Shown here: piece after piece, positions 1-29,100 of the stretch
How the letters are laid out: every line of letters starts with the position of its first letter
Position numbering within the stretch: position 1 is the first letter of the stretch
Source of the DNA: Candidatus Zixiibacteriota bacterium
GTDB lineage: Bacteria > Zixibacteria > MSB-5A5 > GN15 > JACZUZ01
Assembly: GCA_024280835.1 (NCBI GenBank)
Contig: JAJRPJ010000011.1
Span: forward strand, 308,404-372,403
Direction: 5' to 3'
Length of the DNA: 64,000 nucleotides
The notes under the pieces: model-generated
Told to the model about the DNA's origin: nothing
Database searches by the model: none
What the model saw: only the letters and a program-made list of their open reading frames with translations
Program-made: the position numbers and the translations under genes

Positions 1-989
1 CGGCGCTTGAAGGTGTCGGACTGAAAACCCATGACTTCCTGCTCAGCTCAGATTTATCAACCAAAGACTTATCTGCGATACTAATCAGTGGCTCTGATGG
101 TGACACCAACACTAGGCGCAGATATTTTCGTCCAATTCCGAATTTAATGTTCACTCGCGATGTCGGGGCTTTCATTGGCCAGACGGTGATTTTGGCGCAT
201 CCCGCCAAACGTGTGCGGCTTCGTGAAGGATTATTGGCACAATATATTTTCCGTTATCATCGACTGTTTGCTGAGACTCAGATAGTCGACATACTTGATG
301 ACGCAGCTACTATTACATCAGGCGAAGCAGTGCATATAGAAGGCGGCGATGTCATGGCGCTTGATAGTGAGACATTGGTCGTCGGTACAGGTCAGCGAAC
401 TACAAAACTCGCAGTTGAGCTTTTGGCACAACGCCTACTTAGCGAAGGCATAATCAAACGTTTAATTATGGTTGAACTTCCCGCCGAACGCGCAACCATG
501 CATCTCGACACTGTCTTCACTGTAATTGGTCCCGAGGACTGTGTCTATTTCCCACCACTCTTCAGTGAAGATGACACTACAACCATACCAGCGCGCGCCT
601 TGACCTACGAACTAGTAAATGGCCAAGCGCAAGTCACACATGACTCAAGCCCAGGAGGACTTTTCTGTGCGCTAGAGAGAATCGGATACAGTTTCCCAAA
701 TCGCTTTAAGTGCGGTGGAGACTCGCCGCTGTTTCAATCGCGAGAACAATGGACCGATGGCGCCAATTTGTTTGCCGCTCGCGAAACTGTCGCTTTCATT
801 TACGAACGCAACACCGAAACCATCGCCTCCTTTGAAGAAGCTGGCTATAGTATTGTGACACCCGCAGAGTTTCTAAAGCTTGACCCATCCACTGTAGAGA
901 AGACTTTGGTCTCGGTCAATGGCGCCGAACTTTCCCGCGGTCGAGGTGGCGCACGTTGCATGACCATGCCAATCTCACGACATAGCTAA
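1..989 (+). CDS. arcA: Arginine deiminase (5' end outside window)
   Basis: Frame is open from position 3 (…RPIPNLMFTRD). Contains IEGGD, MHLDTVFT, EQW.DG.N and ELSRGRGGARCMTMP motifs of the amidinotransferase/ADI family. Confidence 0.9.
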   Translation, partial: ALEGVGLKTHDFLLSSDLSTKDLSAILISGSDGDTNTRRRYFRPIPNLMFTRDVGAFIGQTVILAHPAKRVRLREGLLAQYIFRYHRLFAETQIVDILDDAATITSGEAVHIEGGDVMALDSETLVVGTGQRTTKLAVELLAQRLLSEGIIKRLIMVELPAERATMHLDTVFTVIGPEDCVYFPPLFSEDDTTTIPARALTYELVNGQAQVTHDSSPGGLFCALERIGYSFPNRFKCGGDSPLFQSREQWTDGANLFAARETVAFIYERNTETIASFEEAGYSIVTPAEFLKLDPSTVEKTLVSVNGAELSRGRGGARCMTMPISRHS

Positions 990-1254
990 TTCATCAAAAA
1001 CTCCAACACCTTCAAGCGCTCTTTATCGCTCTCTCTTTAACGTTCCTTGTGTAGCGCCTCCTTCAATTTCACCAACCTCAATCTCTATCACTTAGAACTA
1101 AGCCTCGCTTTAGCGACCTTCTTTTGTCAAATAGGTCGCTTCTTCTTTTTGTTGGATTCTGATAGAAACATTGCAAAATGCGTCGATTTTCACTCCGAAA
1201 ACACATTTTGGGTAAACTTTAGCTGAAAAAGTGTGAAAAAAATGCACAAATCGC

Positions 1255-1281
1255 CAAAGGTTCTGTCGGACAAGCCGATAA
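1255..1281 (+). promoter_or_regulatory. sigma28/FliA-like promoter of the histone-like gene
   Basis: CAAA-N15-GCCGATAA versus the consensus TAAA-N15-GCCGATAA, oriented toward 1503. Confidence 0.7.
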
Positions 1282-1502
1282 CTAAAACAAATTCATCGTG
1301 TTATGTGGATTAGTGTGATTTTTGAAATGCATTTCCGCTACGTGATGAGAACAGAAAAAGAAGATAACAGAAGAACTAAGTAACCTAATCACAAAGAAGG
1401 GGATGACGTTCGGAGAAGACGCTTTTGTTTGAGTATCAAATATGAGCGCTGGATTCTTGCGAAGTTCCGTTTGAGCATTAACACATTGAAAGGAGCCATC
1501 AC

Positions 1503-1979
1503 ATGGCTTTTCGTAAAACAACCGCACGTCGTAAACCAGCAGCCAAGCGCAATGCTACACCGCGCGCCACAACCCGTCGCAGCGCCACCAAGCGCGGCGC
1601 CACAGTTCGCGTAAAAGTTTGGTCCGCCAGTGAGATCAGCCAGTTGCGTAAAAAATATCGCAACACAACCAACACCAAAATTGCCAAGTCACTTGGTCGT
1701 ACAGTTGCTTCTGTCCGCGCCAAAGCTGGTTCATTGAGCCTCAAGAAGAACAAAAACTTCTTGTCAATGGTCGCCAAGACTGCTGGTAACGGTGGTATGA
1801 AAACCCGCAAGAGCACAGCTCGCAAGACTGTCGCCCGTAAGGCCAGTTCAATGCGCGGTAAAGCTACCAAGCGCACCGCCGCGAAGCGTAATGCTCCAAA
1901 GCGTAAAACTTCAGCTCGTAAGAGCTCGACACGTCGCGCCACTTCATCCATGAAGCGTAAGGCCACACGTCGTCGCTAG
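1503..1979 (+). CDS. Histone H1/Hc2-like basic protein with a central Myb/SANT-like HTH
   Basis: RBS AAGGAG. 53 of 158 residues are K/R, with one acidic residue. Basic pentapeptide-like tails flank WSASEISQLRKKY…IAKSLGRTVASVRAKA. Followed by its own terminator. Confidence 0.8.
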   Translation: MAFRKTTARRKPAAKRNATPRATTRRSATKRGATVRVKVWSASEISQLRKKYRNTTNTKIAKSLGRTVASVRAKAGSLSLKKNKNFLSMVAKTAGNGGMKTRKSTARKTVARKASSMRGKATKRTAAKRNAPKRKTSARKSSTRRATSSMKRKATRRR

Positions 1980-2016
1980 TCGTTGAAATGACATTCAGCT
2001 CGTAAGGGTTGAATTG

Positions 2017-2051
2017 AAAAAGCCCGACAGCGAGACTGTCGGGCTTTTTTT
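2017..2051 (+). terminator. Rho-independent terminator
   Basis: AAAAAGCCCGACAG-cgaga-CTGTCGGGCTTTTTTT. Confidence 0.9.
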
Positions 2052-2179
2052 GTGCTTATGACACTAGGGAAAACTTAGGCATGGCTCTGCCAGTTTTGAA
2101 CCTGTTAGTATCTAGTCCAGATTCGAGTACCTCACCTGAAGTCTGCAGCAATCATGTCTCGAATGTCTTACTACAATCA

Positions 2180-2208
2180 AACGAAGCCCGACAGATATAC
2201 TGCCGGGC
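2180..2208 (-). terminator. Probable terminator of the spondin gene
   Basis: Minus-strand GCCCGGCAG-tatat-CTGTCGGGC followed by TTCGTTT. Confidence 0.6.
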
Positions 2209-2271
2209 CTCATTTTGCTGCTCTTTCGTAGCTTTATTGTAGGGCTAATGCTAAGAGTTTAAAGTCTTCGA

Positions 2272-3162
2272 CTAATCGTCGTCTCCATCGTCGTCATTGT
2301 CGTTGTCATGATCAGACTCACCGCCAGAAATGAGTTCGATAGTGACTTTCGTAATCTTCTTTTCGATGACATTGGCATATGGGTCGAGATCGCCATTACC
2401 CTGTGTGCCTTTATGCTTTTTGATGCGCTGATGTGGGCTCGAGTCGACAGCATCGTTTTCATTGCCATTGGGATCACCCGCTAGAGCAATAGCTCCCAAA
2501 GCGCTACAACCATCAACAATGTCTGAACTATTCTCGGTATTGTATTCTGTGCCAGCGTCATAGGCCTTTGTGTAATAAACTCGTTTGCCTTCTTTCGGTA
2601 ATTTGACCGAATTCAAACCAGTGAATCCGTCATTTGTGCAGATCAACATCGCCGCAATCGAAAGACGGTCATGCTTCTTACCTGTGATTTCAAAGGTAAC
2701 ATAGTCTTTGAAATTGCCGACCATTGTGCCATAACGTGTCAGTGGCATACCAACATTGACAGCATCAGTCGAAGACGATGAAGCGCTGTAGCGATTGAAC
2801 ATCAATGAGACATCACCATTCTCTGCGATGGCCTCCAAACCACGCGAGGCGAGCTTGCCGACTTCAAACATTGTAAAACCTTTGACATGAGTGGCAATAA
2901 CTGGTGGGGCTAGCGGCTGTCCGACACTCAGGTTCTTGATAGTAACACGATAAGTACGCAGCCCATCACTGTCTTCGGAATCATCGGAGTCTGATTCGTC
3001 GCGCGAGCTACGGTATAGAGTTTGGAACTCTGGTGTTTCGTTGTCTGATGTAGTGGCGCTTGACGCATCGGAATTTAACATAGTGTCGTTTCCGCTACAA
3101 CCTACGAATGTCGCGCCTGATAAGGCGAAGACCGCTAGTAGTGTCAGCATTGATTTCTGCAT
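2272..3162 (-). CDS. Spondin_N-domain lipoprotein
   Basis: Start at MQKS after the GGAGG RBS; lipobox FVGC. Motifs YRVTIKNL..GQPLAP, IAENGD, AMLICTNDGFTG and YDAGTE are typical of bacterial spondin domains. Acidic C-terminal tail. Confidence 0.8.
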   Translation of the reverse strand: MQKSMLTLLAVFALSGATFVGCSGNDTMLNSDASSATTSDNETPEFQTLYRSSRDESDSDDSEDSDGLRTYRVTIKNLSVGQPLAPPVIATHVKGFTMFEVGKLASRGLEAIAENGDVSLMFNRYSASSSSTDAVNVGMPLTRYGTMVGNFKDYVTFEITGKKHDRLSIAAMLICTNDGFTGLNSVKLPKEGKRVYYTKAYDAGTEYNTENSSDIVDGCSALGAIALAGDPNGNENDAVDSSPHQRIKKHKGTQGNGDLDPYANVIEKKITKVTIELISGGESDHDNDNDDDGDDD

Positions 3163-3306
3163 ACTGAAAAACCTCCCTAAAAATGTAAGAAATTGTTTAG
3201 CGAACAATGTTTAGTAAATGTCTTCTGGCAAATGTCGTTTACCAAGCATTGAGCGCGCGCTTGAGGCGCCAGTCGGAGAGCTGGAGCTTCGTTGTTGTCA
3301 TGGAGG

Positions 3307-3335
3307 AATACGATATGAAGCTGTAAATTGGATTG
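3307..3335 (-). promoter_or_regulatory. ECF-type promoter upstream of the spondin gene
   Basis: CAATCC-N17-CGTATT; matches the motif upstream of the adjacent ECF sigma gene. Confidence 0.55.
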
Positions 3336-3387
3336 AATAAATCTATTTATTTCTTCGAAAAGCTTCAGGAAGCTAGACTTGGATGGC

Positions 3388-4218
3388 TTAGTGAATTTTG
3401 CTAAGCGTATTGTAGCCAAGGAGATAGCGCATGCCGGTTGGCTCTTTGACACCACCAATTGGCTCAATTGTGACCATGAAGGAATCAATCGAAGCAACAG
3501 TTGGCAAACCGCGGAATTTCAGGAGCGCATAACCATCATTCTGAACTGTGAAGACACCAACACTTTGGGTGACACTATCGTGCTTAATCCAAGCCTGATA
3601 CTCGCGGCCTTCGGGTACATCGGGCAATTTATAGGCATAGAATACGCCGAAATCTTCGTCGGGATGGAGGAAGAGTTTTGCGAAAGCCTGTGGGTTTGGT
3701 TCAACACCTGCGAGATCAACTAGTCGAGTGCAGGGTTTGCCGAGTAAGATTGTGGCGTCGTTTTGAATTGAATTGTCGTCGGCTAAACGATCGAGTTTGA
3801 TACTTGAATTGGCGAGTTCGTTTTGAAGATTTGAGATTTTTGAATTGAGTGTAACATTCCAGAACGCCAACACAACGACTGCAACTGCGCCTGTCATAGT
3901 TAGAGCTTTTGACCATTTCAACCATGCCGAGCTGGTCTCTGTGGGTGAGATGTTTGAACTAGTTGAATCATCTGATGTTTTTGAAATGACAGTTGTTTTG
4001 CTGACTTGCTGCATCAGAGACACTTTTAAACCTGCTGACGGAGATGATTCTTTTAGGCCTTGGGCAAGATAGAGCGAAACATCGCCGACTTCTCGTAGCC
4101 GCGCATGGCAAAGAGAGCACTTGGTATGCAAGTGTTCTTCGACCGCTTGATATTCGGCATCGGATAGGGCGCCGAAAACGTAGGCGTCTATGAGTTCGTA
4201 GGCTTCTTTGTGTTCCAT
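3388..4218 (-). CDS. RskA-family anti-sigma factor
   Basis: N-terminal zf-HC2-like AYVFGAL…HL..CSLC, one TM helix, C-terminal LP..PEGREYQAW…VTIEP.GG..EPTG. Confidence 0.85.
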   Translation of the reverse strand: MEHKEAYELIDAYVFGALSDAEYQAVEEHLHTKCSLCHARLREVGDVSLYLAQGLKESSPSAGLKVSLMQQVSKTTVISKTSDDSTSSNISPTETSSAWLKWSKALTMTGAVAVVVLAFWNVTLNSKISNLQNELANSSIKLDRLADDNSIQNDATILLGKPCTRLVDLAGVEPNPQAFAKLFLHPDEDFGVFYAYKLPDVPEGREYQAWIKHDSVTQSVGVFTVQNDGYALLKFRGLPTVASIDSFMVTIEPIGGVKEPTGMRYLLGYNTLSKIH

Positions 4219-4241
4219 CTGTCTTATTTGTACTACTCTGG

Positions 4242-4862
4242 TTATGCTTCTGTGTCCAGTAGAGTTCTTAGTTGAGAGATTGCCGCTCTTAGTCGACTTT
4301 TGACGGTTCCGAGTGGTGTGTCTATTTGTTCGGCTATTTCGGCATGCGAAAGACCACCGTAATAGGCCAATTCTATAACTTGTCTTTGATCGTTACTCAA
4401 CTTTTCTAGTTTCTTGAGCGCTCTGCCAACTACCATGCCAAGAGCTATTTGTTCGCTTTCTCTACCCGCCTCTGATCGCACAGCCTCTTGACCAGCTTTT
4501 GAGGTGACTTCGGGTTCAAGCTCTACCGTTACTTTTTGAGAGCGGTGATGTTTGGAGCGAGTTCTATCGATTGCTAGTCTTCTAGCTATCGTCACTATCC
4601 AAACTACGACACTGCCTCGGTTGGGGTCGAAACTTTGCGCCTTTTCCCAAATGCGCAAAAATACCGCCTGCGTGACTTCTTCGGCATCATCGGCATTGCG
4701 CACTACATTGAGGATAATACTATAAACTAATCCAACGCGACTATCATAGAGAGCCGAGAGAGCGTTTTGGTCACCAGTTTGGATTCTACCAAGTAGAATA
4801 CCGTCGAGGTGACCCGCCACATCGAAATTCCCGTTATTCCCTGTAGTCTCATTAGCCGACAT
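4242..4862 (-). CDS. ECF RNA polymerase sigma factor (SigK-like)
   Basis: DAEEVTQAVFLRIW; region 4 LAYYGGLSHAEIA…PLGTVKSRLR; adjacent to an RskA gene. Confidence 0.9.
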   Translation of the reverse strand: MSANETTGNNGNFDVAGHLDGILLGRIQTGDQNALSALYDSRVGLVYSIILNVVRNADDAEEVTQAVFLRIWEKAQSFDPNRGSVVVWIVTIARRLAIDRTRSKHHRSQKVTVELEPEVTSKAGQEAVRSEAGRESEQIALGMVVGRALKKLEKLSNDQRQVIELAYYGGLSHAEIAEQIDTPLGTVKSRLRAAISQLRTLLDTEA

Positions 4863-4885
4863 AGTCTCTCCACCGGCTATTAGCT

Positions 4886-4913
4886 AATACGAGGATATTT
4901 CTGATTTCGATCA
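4886..4913 (-). promoter_or_regulatory. Autoregulatory ECF promoter
   Basis: TGATCG-N16-CGTATT, 24 nt upstream of the sigma start codon. Confidence 0.55.
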
Positions 4914-5013
4914 CTGGAAATTGCATGGACTAGGAAAGTACATCTTTGGACGCGTTGTAGCAACAACATAATTTGCATGCCCGTAACCGTATGTTATTAT
5001 TCCGCTTATAACG

Positions 5014-5035
5014 AAAATGGGTTCGTTTTGCATAT
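5014..5035. repeat. Left copy of a 22-bp inverted repeat
   Basis: AAAATGGGTTCGTTTTGCATAT matches the reverse complement of 7411-7432 at 21/22. Confidence 0.8.
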
Positions 5036-5220
5036 ACAAGTTATCAGCGTTGGTAGATTGTTGTCTTTTTGTGATTTTGGTGGTTTCTGGTCTGATTTGG
5101 TTGATTCTGTTGTTCTGCTCTCATGCTATAGGTCTTGAGTTGTAATCTAGTGTAGGTTGGTTGTTTCTTCCCTCCAAATGGCATTGCGGGGACAACCCAA
5201 GCCTTGATTACTATGATTGT

Positions 5221-5520
5221 TTAATCCACGACGGTTAATCGGCGGATGTTTAGTTCTTCAGCTAGCAGGTCTGGTAGTTTGGCTATTGCCTCTTGGAGAT
5301 GGGGGCTGGCTAGATGAGCGTTGAGATGGGCTTCGCTTTGCCATTCTTCGATGAAGACAAACTCGCTGGGATCGGCATTATTGCTGTGCATTTCGTAGCG
5401 GATGTAACCGTCCTCTTTGGTGGTCGGCTCGATTAGGGTTTTCAGGTAGTCGCAAAGTTCCTGCTCTTTGCCAGATTTGGCTTTGAGGATGGCGACTACT
5501 CTTAGTGTTTTTTCTGACAT
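5221..5520 (-). CDS. ABM-family (putative quinol) monooxygenase
   Basis: VVA.LKAK.GKE…EDG.IRYE.H…FVFIEEW.SEA.L.AH..SPH pattern. Confidence 0.85.
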   Translation of the reverse strand: MSEKTLRVVAILKAKSGKEQELCDYLKTLIEPTTKEDGYIRYEMHSNNADPSEFVFIEEWQSEAHLNAHLASPHLQEAIAKLPDLLAEELNIRRLTVVD

Positions 5521-5552
5521 GTTCTTTCTTCCCTTGTTATAAGTTTGTCTGG

Positions 5553-6068
5553 CTAATATACGTAAAAATCATCCTTGGAGCTTCTAGAAAGATGGAAACT
5601 TGAAAGCAATTCGTATTCTTTGGCGCTTTCTAAACTATAGAGCAATTGCAGACCTACAGTCTCGATAGAGTCAGCTAACTCTAAGTAATTTAAGAGCAGC
5701 ATCGCCTCTGGAGTGATCTGGTTGGTCCTGTCTAGTTTCTTGACGATTGGTAGACGCAGCTCCCCTGCTAGTTCGGCGCTCGTTATGACGAAACTGTCGA
5801 TTCGTAGTAATTGGTTTAGCAGGGTTTGTTGATAGGTTGCATCGGTGACTCCAGTTGGACTAATCTCGGCGAGTTCGCAAAACACAGCGAGACTGTAATA
5901 GTTTTTTCTATGTGGGTAACCGCTATCGTCTAATTCTTGTTTGAGCTGGGCACCAATATGGATTCCGTCCTGTGTCCATTTCGCTTCTTGGGTGAATTGA
6001 TGGAAGACAGATAAGGCGCAGGCGAGCATAAAGAGGTAGAGCATCAGAGGTTTGGTATTCTTGGTCAT
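5553..6068 (-). CDS. Hypothetical exported/membrane-anchored protein
   Basis: 171-aa ORF with an N-terminal hydrophobic segment; start overlaps the HNH stop (ATGA). Confidence 0.55.
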   Translation of the reverse strand: MTKNTKPLMLYLFMLACALSVFHQFTQEAKWTQDGIHIGAQLKQELDDSGYPHRKNYYSLAVFCELAEISPTGVTDATYQQTLLNQLLRIDSFVITSAELAGELRLPIVKKLDRTNQITPEAMLLLNYLELADSIETVGLQLLYSLESAKEYELLSSFHLSRSSKDDFYVY

Positions 6069-28329: not shown

Positions 28330-29100
28330 CTATGGTTTTGAACGTAGGAGCGAGAGTACATTCTCTTTGTTAAGATTTGAATGCGCTTCTAGGGCTGTAT
28401 TGATTTGTATTTGCCGGATTTCTTTCATGAACTCCATTAGAGCTGACATGAAATCAGACAGCGATGGTCCTTGTGAGGCTTGAATGTTCTGGACTGCGAC
28501 CTCCATCGAACTTCTCGACGAATTGAGATCATTCTTGATGGAAGATCCAAGACGCACTCGCACTGAGTCGACTTTTGTTGCGGCAGCATCGACCATCTCT
28601 ATTGCCGCCTGTGCGCCTTCGACTGTAGTGACATCAATCGCTCCTAATTCTGGAATATTAGTTAGCGAACCGGCGCTACCGTCGAGTAAGTTGGCTCCAT
28701 TGTATCCAGCAGTTGAGATAGTGTCATTAAAGGCCTGACGAAGTAGTTCGGCTTCAGCATTGAGAGCGGCTTGGCTGGCGCTATCTAGGGTTGCGGTATT
28801 TGAGGCGGCAATGGTATTGACACGAATGTCTGTCAGGATAGAGCGTGCACGTCCTAAATAGACATCAGCGGTTTCGTACTTGGCAATTGTTGCCGTTGTA
28901 TTTGCGATACGCTGATTCAAGGAGGCAATTTGCGATTTCATTTGCTCTGAGATCATAAGGCCCGCCGGATCATTGGATGCAAGTGGAGAATTAGTTGTAT
29001 TTGTCAATTTGTTCAACGCATTTGACAATCTGTCGTATGATGAGAGAATGCTGAGACTTGATGGACTTCCCAGTGTTCTGATAAAGAATAAGCTATTCAT
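28330..29100 (-). CDS. Orphan minimal flagellin-like protein
   Basis: AS.DPAGLMISEQM, ETAD, AASN, YNGANLLDGS, AQAAI..VDAA, RLGS, VLSLL; no D2/D3 domains. Confidence 0.85.
   Translation of the reverse strand: MNSLFFIRTLGSPSSLSILSSYDRLSNALNKLTNTTNSPLASNDPAGLMISEQMKSQIASLNQRIANTTATIAKYETADVYLGRARSILTDIRVNTIAASNTATLDSASQAALNAEAELLRQAFNDTISTAGYNGANLLDGSAGSLTNIPELGAIDVTTVEGAQAAIEMVDAAATKVDSVRVRLGSSIKNDLNSSRSSMEVAVQNIQASQGPSLSDFMSALMEFMKEIRQIQINTALEAHSNLNKENVLSLLRSKP

Follow-up and report, generated by a model that had tools for sequence, protein, structure and literature searches.

Fusions of a folded DNA-binding domain with H1-like tails are already known in bacteria, in the form of HU-tail proteins: mycobacterial HupB/Hlp and Streptomyces HupS combine an HU fold with a single Lys/Ala-rich C-terminal tail that increases compaction. 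The chlamydial histone-like protein Hc2 is essentially all basic repeat tail and has no conserved folded domain. In the accessible part of one report, its gene, hctB, is a bona fide sigma-28 target, one of only two in that organism, and Hc2 condenses DNA (PMC12282069). Here we describe a gene at positions 1503–1979 of a 64,000-nucleotide stretch of contig JAJRPJ010000011.1 (the window), from a Candidatus Zixiibacteriota bacterium. It encodes a 158-residue protein in which a predicted GcrA/Myb-type helix-turn-helix (HTH) core lies between two polycationic tails, and it is preceded by a predicted sigma-28 (FliA)-type promoter that recurs among its relatives. By analogy with the sigma-28-dependent chlamydial hctB, we propose, with roughly even confidence for and against, that the product may be an architectural DNA-binding protein, abundant in the cell and expressed along with the motility regulon.

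The protein and Hc2 (PF07382, NF038052) are both extremely basic and rich in short Ala/Lys/Arg/Thr repeats. A sigma-28-type promoter lies in front of both genes, and DNA condensation, established for Hc2, would be the corresponding proposal here. Homology is nonetheless absent: the Pfam HC2 model scores the protein at 18.8 bits, where its cut-off is 40 (E = 0.0019), the NCBIfam model at 10.2, where it is 135, and an HC2 match at E ≤ 1 occurs in only 3 of 26 family members. An earlier note on this DNA, made from its letters, had called the tails Hc2-like, which is correct for their composition but not for family membership. Moreover, Hc2 is essentially all tail, whereas some 55 residues of the protein described here form a conserved HTH core that is predicted to fold (predicted local distance difference test, pLDDT, 88–96), and Hc2 belongs to non-flagellated chlamydiae, whereas here the host is a flagellated bacterium, with sigma-28 as its flagellar sigma factor.

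Linker histones H1 and H5 have the same order of short basic tail, small globular DNA-binding domain (predicted here) and longer basic tail. They likewise keep charge in tails of variable sequence, and the paired variants per genome described below recall H1 variants. However, the globular domain of H1/H5 is a winged helix, whereas a three-helix Myb/GcrA-type HTH takes that place here, and the 158-residue protein contains no S/TPKK motifs. The suggestion in the earlier note that the protein had converged on the H1 layout thus stands for the tail–domain–tail order and falls for the globular part, which is not a winged helix. What likens the protein to Hc2 and to eukaryotic H1 is layout and composition rather than descent, and any similarity to H1 is convergent.

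HupB/Hlp and HupS follow a common principle with our protein, a folded DNA-binding domain (predicted here) with an H1-like tail, but they use the HU fold and one tail, whereas here a GcrA/Myb-type HTH carries two tails and HU is separate. GcrA of Caulobacter (PF07750; PDB 5yiu, 5yiv and 7ye1) has the motif W-x3-E...L...(W/Y)...IA..LG...V..K..LGL in common with the core. Its sigma-70-interacting C-terminal domain, however, is absent here, with polycationic tails instead, and the HTH of the 158-residue protein is not N-terminal. The alignment to full-length GcrA (7ye1_G) stops in the linker, and the last 61 residues of the protein form a K/R tail predicted to be disordered. Cbp2 (2lvs), the best PDB profile match, and multi-repeat bacterial and phage HTH proteins have the HTH module in common with our protein; they chain several HTH units without long polycationic tails, whereas here a single unit carries two tails.

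A GcrA/Myb-type HTH between two H1-like tails appears to be undescribed in the literature that we searched, on GcrA-like, H1-like, Myb-like and Zixibacteria nucleoid or histone-like proteins, and the same appears to hold for the phylum-wide spread of the family and its recurrent pairing with a sigma-28-type promoter. All family records bear the source name 'hypothetical protein', close homologues are nameless in a cluster look-up, and neither Pfam nor NCBIfam holds a model of this family, in agreement with the earlier description of the protein as undescribed.

The predicted core and its polycationic tails

A recount of the translated gene gives 26 Lys and 27 Arg, together 53 of 158 residues, with E44 as the single acidic residue, exactly as the earlier note had it; the protein is further rich in Ala (25), Thr (21) and Ser (17). 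Its calculated net charge is about +51 and its pI about 12. In basicity it ranks third among the 5,865 open reading frames (ORFs) of at least 80 residues in the genome, exceeded only by its own paralogue and by a K-rich SWIB-domain protein. An AlphaFold2 model built on an alignment of 19 close homologues supports the tripartite layout that had been proposed. Residues ~40–90 are predicted to fold as an HTH with pLDDT 88–96, and the tails are predicted to be disordered, with pLDDT below 50 over most of both (48–65 in the N-terminal tail, 42–50 in the C-terminal tail). The 19 homologues are 71–100% identical over residues 34–95 and differ in their tails. Of their 26 invariant columns, 23 fall within residues 37–82, and the stretch from W40 to K82, which the earlier note had delimited as a core of about 50 residues, is the conserved part. 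Across 26 aligned family members, W40, E44, A61, R66, K74, L78 and K82 are invariant.

Structural and sequence comparisons suggest that GcrA is among the nearer relatives of the core. Exhaustive structural alignment (VIA-align) against 48,161 PDB representatives ranked the GcrA DNA-binding domain first (5yiu_A; Z = 7.1, root-mean-square deviation 1.3 Å, 47 of 49 residues aligned, 30% identity). It was followed at Z 5.3–6.4 by CoREST SANT2 (6.2–6.4), the Tc3 transposase HTH, Reb1 and c-Myb repeats (5.3–5.9), all under Z 8. The geometrically best Foldseek match was again GcrA 5yiu (TM 0.81, 1.1 Å, 45 columns, 31% identity). Because Z values below 8 can reflect a common arrangement, the HTH assignment rests on structure and sequence together. 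A profile of the 26-member family against PDB sequences matched Cbp2 (2lvs_A, E = 2 × 10⁻⁴), GcrA (E = 0.013 and 0.025) and a human DnaJC1 SANT domain (E = 0.034). Among phage families, the PHROG match was to phrog_323, 'transcriptional regulator' (E = 1.7 × 10⁻⁵ to 2 × 10⁻⁹). The available portion of its source identifies 2lvs as Cbp2, an archaeal CRISPR-repeat-binding homeodomain protein (PMC3597662).

Curated domain models do not claim the protein. A Pfam scan of its 158 residues returned no domain, the HC2 match being sub-threshold and compositional. The GcrA model (PF07750) found no match in the protein at E ≤ 10 and none in the 26 members at E ≤ 1; Myb/SANT models (PF00249, PF13921) found none in the protein and one among the 26 members, at a sub-threshold E of 0.03–0.04. 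Of the regularly spaced aromatic residues of the Myb fold, W40 and Y52 are conserved, but the third position is aliphatic in the family. Linker_histone likewise gave no match in the protein at E ≤ 10, and the model is all helices without a beta wing. Linker-histone globular domains were also missing from the best 50 VIA-align matches listed, an absence from which a difference in fold does not follow. By these tests the protein falls outside the GcrA, Hc2, Myb and H1 families, and what had been described as a Myb/SANT-like HTH is, more precisely, a predicted three-helix HTH nearest to the GcrA DNA-binding domain.

The positions shared with GcrA are those that would touch the DNA backbone. In the part of the GcrA study at hand, W3, W15, T32 and K39 contact phosphates, and N34, I37, H41 and R42 read the bases of methylated GANTC (PMC5887438). 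Transferred through the HMMER profile-versus-PDB alignment, the phosphate contacts given in that part correspond to W40, Y52, T67 and K74, all invariant or nearly so in the family, and the base readers to A69, R72, G76 and S77, which are not conserved. Phosphate contacts that are kept and base readers that are replaced therefore fit DNA binding without GcrA specificity. We infer that the core docks on DNA in the manner of a GcrA or Myb HTH.

The tails are regular in charge and irregular in sequence. In both, K/R positions are most strongly autocorrelated at lag 5 (z = 3.9 in the N-terminal and 3.7 in the C-terminal tail, judged against 2,000 shuffles), with depletion at lags 2–3, so that dibasic pairs recur every five residues. 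The pentapeptides TARRK, PAAKR, TVARK and TAAKR, which had been noted on both sides of the core, start at residues 7, 12, 109 and 125. Across the 26 aligned members the N-terminal tail spans 22–100 residues and the C-terminal tail 13–82. Their sequences vary and range from nearly pure K to nearly pure R, and the C-terminal tail is absent from a short subfamily. K+R nevertheless stays at 27–47%, with few acidic residues. Because length and sequence vary while charge is kept, the tails look as though they were selected for bulk charge and not for sequence.

Two other basic proteins of the genome were observed alongside. The second most basic ORF, of 221 residues (L053 1-663(-), or G000:C19:85785-86468), is the third polycationic protein of the genome. 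It fuses an N-terminal (VAKKK)n tail of ~145 residues to a SWIB/MDM2 domain (94.7 bits), and its tail gives a sub-threshold HC2 match of 33.6 bits. A similar tail on a SWIB domain in the same genome means that such tails are modular here. In a very basic 169-residue ORF on the minus strand of G000:C4, a hydrophobic segment at the N-terminus is followed by KTTRKTTRKTTRKTT repeats and a C-terminus rich in K, S and T; it may encode a secreted or membrane-anchored polycationic protein.

The family and its sigma-28-type promoter

The sigma-28 consensus is TAAAGTTT-N11-GCCGATAA. The site upstream of the gene agrees with it at 14 of 16 positions and is the only one in the window, on either strand, to reach at least 14, in line with the earlier claim that it is the best sigma-28 promoter there. 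The whole 3.3-Mb genome holds 12 such sites, this one included, and none scores higher. In five distinct orthologous loci of the same type, the block xAAAG(T/G)TT-N11-GCCGATA is kept in all five (N12 in one), 228–305 nt upstream of the ATG, whereas the flanks diverge.

To place this promoter in the family, 47 loci were sorted by eye, without a tree, into group A (R-rich and tripartite, the type of the gene described here), group B (a second R-rich type), group C (short, without the C-terminal tail) and group D (K-rich). The 350 nt upstream of each gene were scored as matches of 16 to the consensus. Group A scored 14, 14, 14, 14 and 11, and group C 13, 11, 13, 15, 13, 13, 13 and 13, so that the promoter is conserved not only in the five orthologues but also in a second clade. 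A score of at least 13 was thus reached in 11 of the 13 loci of groups A and C, counts that describe this sample and are not independent trials, because the loci are related to each other. Among 3,000 random 350-nt windows of this genome, by comparison, scores of at least 13, 12 and 11 occurred in 0.9%, 4.9% and 27%. Group B scored 10–13, with at least 13 in 1 of 12 loci, and most of its loci have a weaker conserved block, T(A/C/T)AAG(G/T)AT-N11-xxCGATxA, at −108 to −114. Group D scored 9–12 and reached 13 in none of 22 loci. FliA is encoded in this genome (TIGR02479, 253.5 bits, above the cut-off), which also has Flagellin_N and FHIPEP (FlhA) matches. All ten other genomes tested, five carrying the promoter on their best copy and five lacking it, likewise have FliA above the curated cut-off, which makes 11 of 11 overall. 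Absence of the sigma factor therefore does not explain the difference between groups.

Elsewhere in the same genome, intergenic sigma-28-type sites precede motA, fliD and three stand-alone receiver (single-domain response regulator) proteins, as well as pilM, a T2SSE (PilT/PilB-like) ATPase and a Big_1/invasin-like surface protein (loci L044, L052, L045, L049, L051, L047, L048 and L046). The position weight matrix for these sites was trained on a set that includes the site of 1503–1979 itself. The motif thus appears to be in use in this genome, and its positions suggest that the FliA regulon may reach type IV pilus genes too. The −10 element GCCGATAA occurs 182 times genome-wide against ~97 expected, mostly inside ORFs, and is uninformative alone. 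A weak Flagellin_N match (50.7 bits) within the window, at 28675–29049 on the minus strand in a 262-residue open frame, may mark a divergent flagellin or FlgL-like gene.

The transcription unit around the gene has the form that the earlier note had read from it: monocistronic, with a strong ribosome-binding site (RBS) and a terminator. It is monocistronic because the upstream neighbour, an arginine deiminase family gene, ends at 989 and the downstream neighbour, a Spondin_N gene at 2272–3207, runs on the opposite strand. The RBS, AAGGAG, lies 7 nt before the ATG. A simple terminator scan missed the downstream hairpin, and folding confirmed it: the segment 1980–2060 folds with ΔG −33.6 kcal/mol (z = −4.5; 0 of 200 shuffles as stable). 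An equivalent hairpin and T-run follow 5 of 5 orthologues and, by eye and without a formal count, most of 27 family loci. The long leader could be a translational control element. The leaders of the five orthologues (228–305 nt) contain the conserved blocks AAGAAGGGGA..CGTTCGG and GTTCCGTTTGAGCATTAACACATTGAAAGGAGCC and blocks near the RBS, and a 7-bp hairpin (GAGCCAU/AUGGCUU) joins the last bases of the Shine-Dalgarno sequence to the start codon. Because its sequence does not change across the five orthologues, the hairpin offers no covariation evidence and is uninformative. The fold of the whole leader is not unusual (z = −1.1), the consensus fold of the five leaders has weak energy and only 3 compensatory pairs, and an Rfam search of 1000–2300 gave only three sub-threshold matches, over the terminator region and none within the leader.

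Homologues were found in large numbers. A family match is present in 178 of 285 genomes of the phylum (131 of 198 good-quality genomes), and a positive genome has 1–4 of them. In seven GTDB families coverage is nearly complete (f1 4/4, f2 95/108, f3 13/14, f4 30/33, f5 21/21, f9 6/6 and f10 6/6). Within the same 285 genomes, family f16 gave two weak matches only and the 12 remaining families gave none. Family records are labelled Zixibacteria, except for one Calditrichaeota record and one Atlas cluster from Planctomycetota. An HMMER search over 1.84 billion representatives recovered 877 proteins at E ≤ 10⁻³, and in most of the best 150 of these the core unit is repeated 3–12 times in tandem; the Zixibacteria form has one unit with basic tails. 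In the tandem-copy proteins (P0020, P0021, P0023 and most of the best 150), the HTH unit of ~50 residues reads W..E...L...YP......IA..LGRT..AV..KA..LGL.K, and one of them is named 'CsgD family transcriptional regulator' by its source. A Pfam scan of 12 tandem-copy proteins matched GcrA in 8, Myb_DNA-binding in 11 and Sigma70_r4_2 in 12, with whole-protein scores that are sums over repeats.

The genome itself holds a second copy (G000:C7, L002 1498-2046(-)), a 183-residue protein with 59 K and 26 R, in which a K-rich N-terminal tail of 100 residues precedes the same HTH core and a C-terminal tail of 40 residues. It has its own terminator and no sigma-28-type promoter upstream; a sigma-70 promoter scan at this paralogue found one 9/12 site, which is chance level. 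In sister genomes its orthologues have CTTGACAT upstream, which may be a sigma-70 −35 element. This pairing is recurrent: all 15 two-copy genomes examined pairwise have one D copy and one A, B or C copy, a count that describes a sample of mutually related best search matches and not independent trials.

Both copies also stand out in codon usage. With weights taken from 21 ribosomal-protein genes of the S10–spc region, the codon adaptation index (CAI) is 0.82 for the gene and 0.80 for the K-rich paralogue. These values lie above all 1,361 ORFs of at least 300 residues (99th percentile 0.78) and above all 21 ribosomal-protein genes (maximum 0.79). In the gene, Arg is encoded by CGT or CGC at all 27 positions, and Gly by GGT at 6 of 7. 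As a sign of high expression, this codon usage is supportive, not decisive.

Possible roles of the protein

Our preferred reading, an abundant architectural protein of the motility regulon, can be put as a tentative mechanism. Transcription would start from the FliA (sigma-28)-type promoter and run through the leader of ~215 nt; given that promoter, the protein would appear along with the products of the motility regulon. The GcrA/Myb-type HTH would seat in the major groove through the conserved backbone-contacting W40, Y52, T67 and K74. The disordered tails, with dibasic pairs every five residues, would neutralise phosphate charge and reach neighbouring duplexes, and DNA might thereby be coated, bridged or compacted. 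The K-rich paralogue, which lacks a sigma-28-type promoter, would be another variant, expressed otherwise.

Several observations weigh against this proposal. The genome already has an HU gene. The best structural match of the core, at Z = 7.1, stays below ~8, the level at which the tool indicates more than a common arrangement, and no Foldseek match of the core in the PDB reached E ≤ 0.001. With only 158 codons, mostly for R, K, A and T, the gene draws its CAI from a small number of codon families, in a genome whose codon bias is weak (background s.d. 0.027). The loci behind the promoter counts are best search matches and mutually related, in subfamilies set by eye. The main flagellin gene (G000:C14:48407-48823, minus strand) has no clean motif or −10 element within 260 nt upstream, so that the local sigma-28 consensus is not independently established. 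In addition, the recognition helix is very strongly conserved (S70, V71, K74, A75), which would suit a specific site too, and the nearest characterised HTH relatives, GcrA, Cbp2 and phrog_323, are sequence-specific regulators.

These last two points lead to the chief alternative, which we regard as rather unlikely but the strongest of the competing accounts: a sequence-specific regulator of the motility programme, that is, a class-III, FliA-dependent HTH protein that represses or activates defined genes, with tails that only raise affinity or aid sliding. Because the nearest homologous modules occur in sequence-specific regulators, this account keeps some weight. The core relatives of known function (GcrA, Cbp2, phrog_323, Myb and the Tc3 HTH) bind specific DNA, the recognition helix is nearly invariant phylum-wide, and a sigma-28 promoter would put the gene inside a regulatory cascade. 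A site-specific factor would not usually, however, carry a charge of +51 on two tails that account for ~60% of its length. In length and K/R content the tails evolve like bulk-charge modules, codon usage is at the top of the genome, neither the Pfam scan nor the AlphaFold2 model reveals a second domain for contact with RNA polymerase or ligand sensing, and the paralogue has the same core without a sigma-28 promoter, as do all 22 K-rich loci.

Another polyanion as the target seems improbable. The protein might in that case bind rRNA or ribosomes (in hibernation or assembly), mRNA or polyphosphate, with the core serving as an RNA- or protein-binding module. Its basicity, disorder and ribosomal-protein-like codon usage are typical of ribosome-associated proteins too, and two mitochondrial ribosome chains are among the weaker structural matches of the core (Z 4.7–5.4). 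The best sequence and structure matches, though, are all dsDNA-binding HTH domains, the phosphate-contact positions given in the accessible part of the GcrA study are conserved, and the gene is not linked to ribosomal or translation genes. In our estimate it is very improbable that the protein is instead the remnant, or a domesticated form, of a phage or mobile-element regulator and has no role in host chromatin. The PHROG matches and the many relatives elsewhere with 3–12 tandem HTH copies are in keeping with such an origin, but the family is kept in 178 of 285 phylum genomes at 1–4 matches each, and promoter, RBS and terminator are conserved among orthologues. The neighbours, moreover, are ordinary chromosomal genes (arginine deiminase, Spondin_N and an ECF sigma/anti-sigma pair), with no adjacent mobile-element genes within 1–6000.

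Beyond the architectural reading, a bolder version, which we hold doubtful but worth stating, is that Zixibacteria have a two-variant, linker-histone-like chromatin, in which the K-rich protein would be the housekeeping form and the R-rich or short protein, driven by the flagellar sigma factor, would repackage or condense the chromosome in motile, dispersing cells. If so, it would be an independent invention of the chlamydial Hc1/Hc2 logic with its sigma-28-driven hctB, and would also parallel eukaryotic H1 variant or protamine switching. Bacterial chromatin proteins are poorly known beyond a few model phyla, and this family, which spans most major families of a candidate phylum with neither a Pfam model nor a functional name, would add a new architecture. 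The recurrent sigma-28-type promoter suggests that free-living bacteria may tie the packaging of their chromosome to the motile state, a coupling so far documented mainly in non-flagellated chlamydiae. Because the core stays constant while tail length and K-to-R composition vary naturally, the family would also be useful for studies of DNA compaction by disordered polycations.

Features of the locus and nearby genes

Table 1. Features of the gene and its flanks, in window coordinates
Feature	Position	Strand	Description
Sigma-28 (FliA)-type promoter, predicted	1255–1281	+	−35 element CAAAGGTT (1255–1262), 11-nt spacer, −10 element GCCGATAA (1274–1281)
Long 5′ leader, inferred	1289–1502	+	About 215 nt; holds the Shine-Dalgarno sequence AAGGAG (1490–1495)
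Coding sequence	1503–1979	+	158 residues and TAG stop; N-terminus MAF/MAY and RBS kept in orthologues
N-terminal polycationic tail	1503–1613	+	Residues 1–37; 13 K+R, zero acidic; without secondary structure
Folded core, predicted	1614–1793	+	Residues 38–97; helices 42–51, 57–64 and 68–78 as GcrA/Myb-type HTH; fourth helix 84–95
C-terminal polycationic tail	1794–1976	+	Residues 98–158; 27 K+R, zero acidic
Intrinsic terminator	2022–2051	+	9-bp G+C-rich stem GCCCGACAG/CTGTCGGGC with 5-nt loop (2022–2044), then T7 (2045–2051)

An ORF antisense to the gene (1499–1966, minus strand), of 155 residues rich in L, R, A and V, was considered and rejected because the RBS, the terminator and all conservation sit on the plus strand; it is a mirror by-product of the biased codon composition. 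The ECF sigma pair near the gene, at 3388–4862 on the minus strand, consists of a sigma factor (Sigma70_r2/r4_2/ECF) followed by a zf-HC2/RskA_C anti-sigma factor, and is an ordinary pair with no evident connection to 1503–1979.

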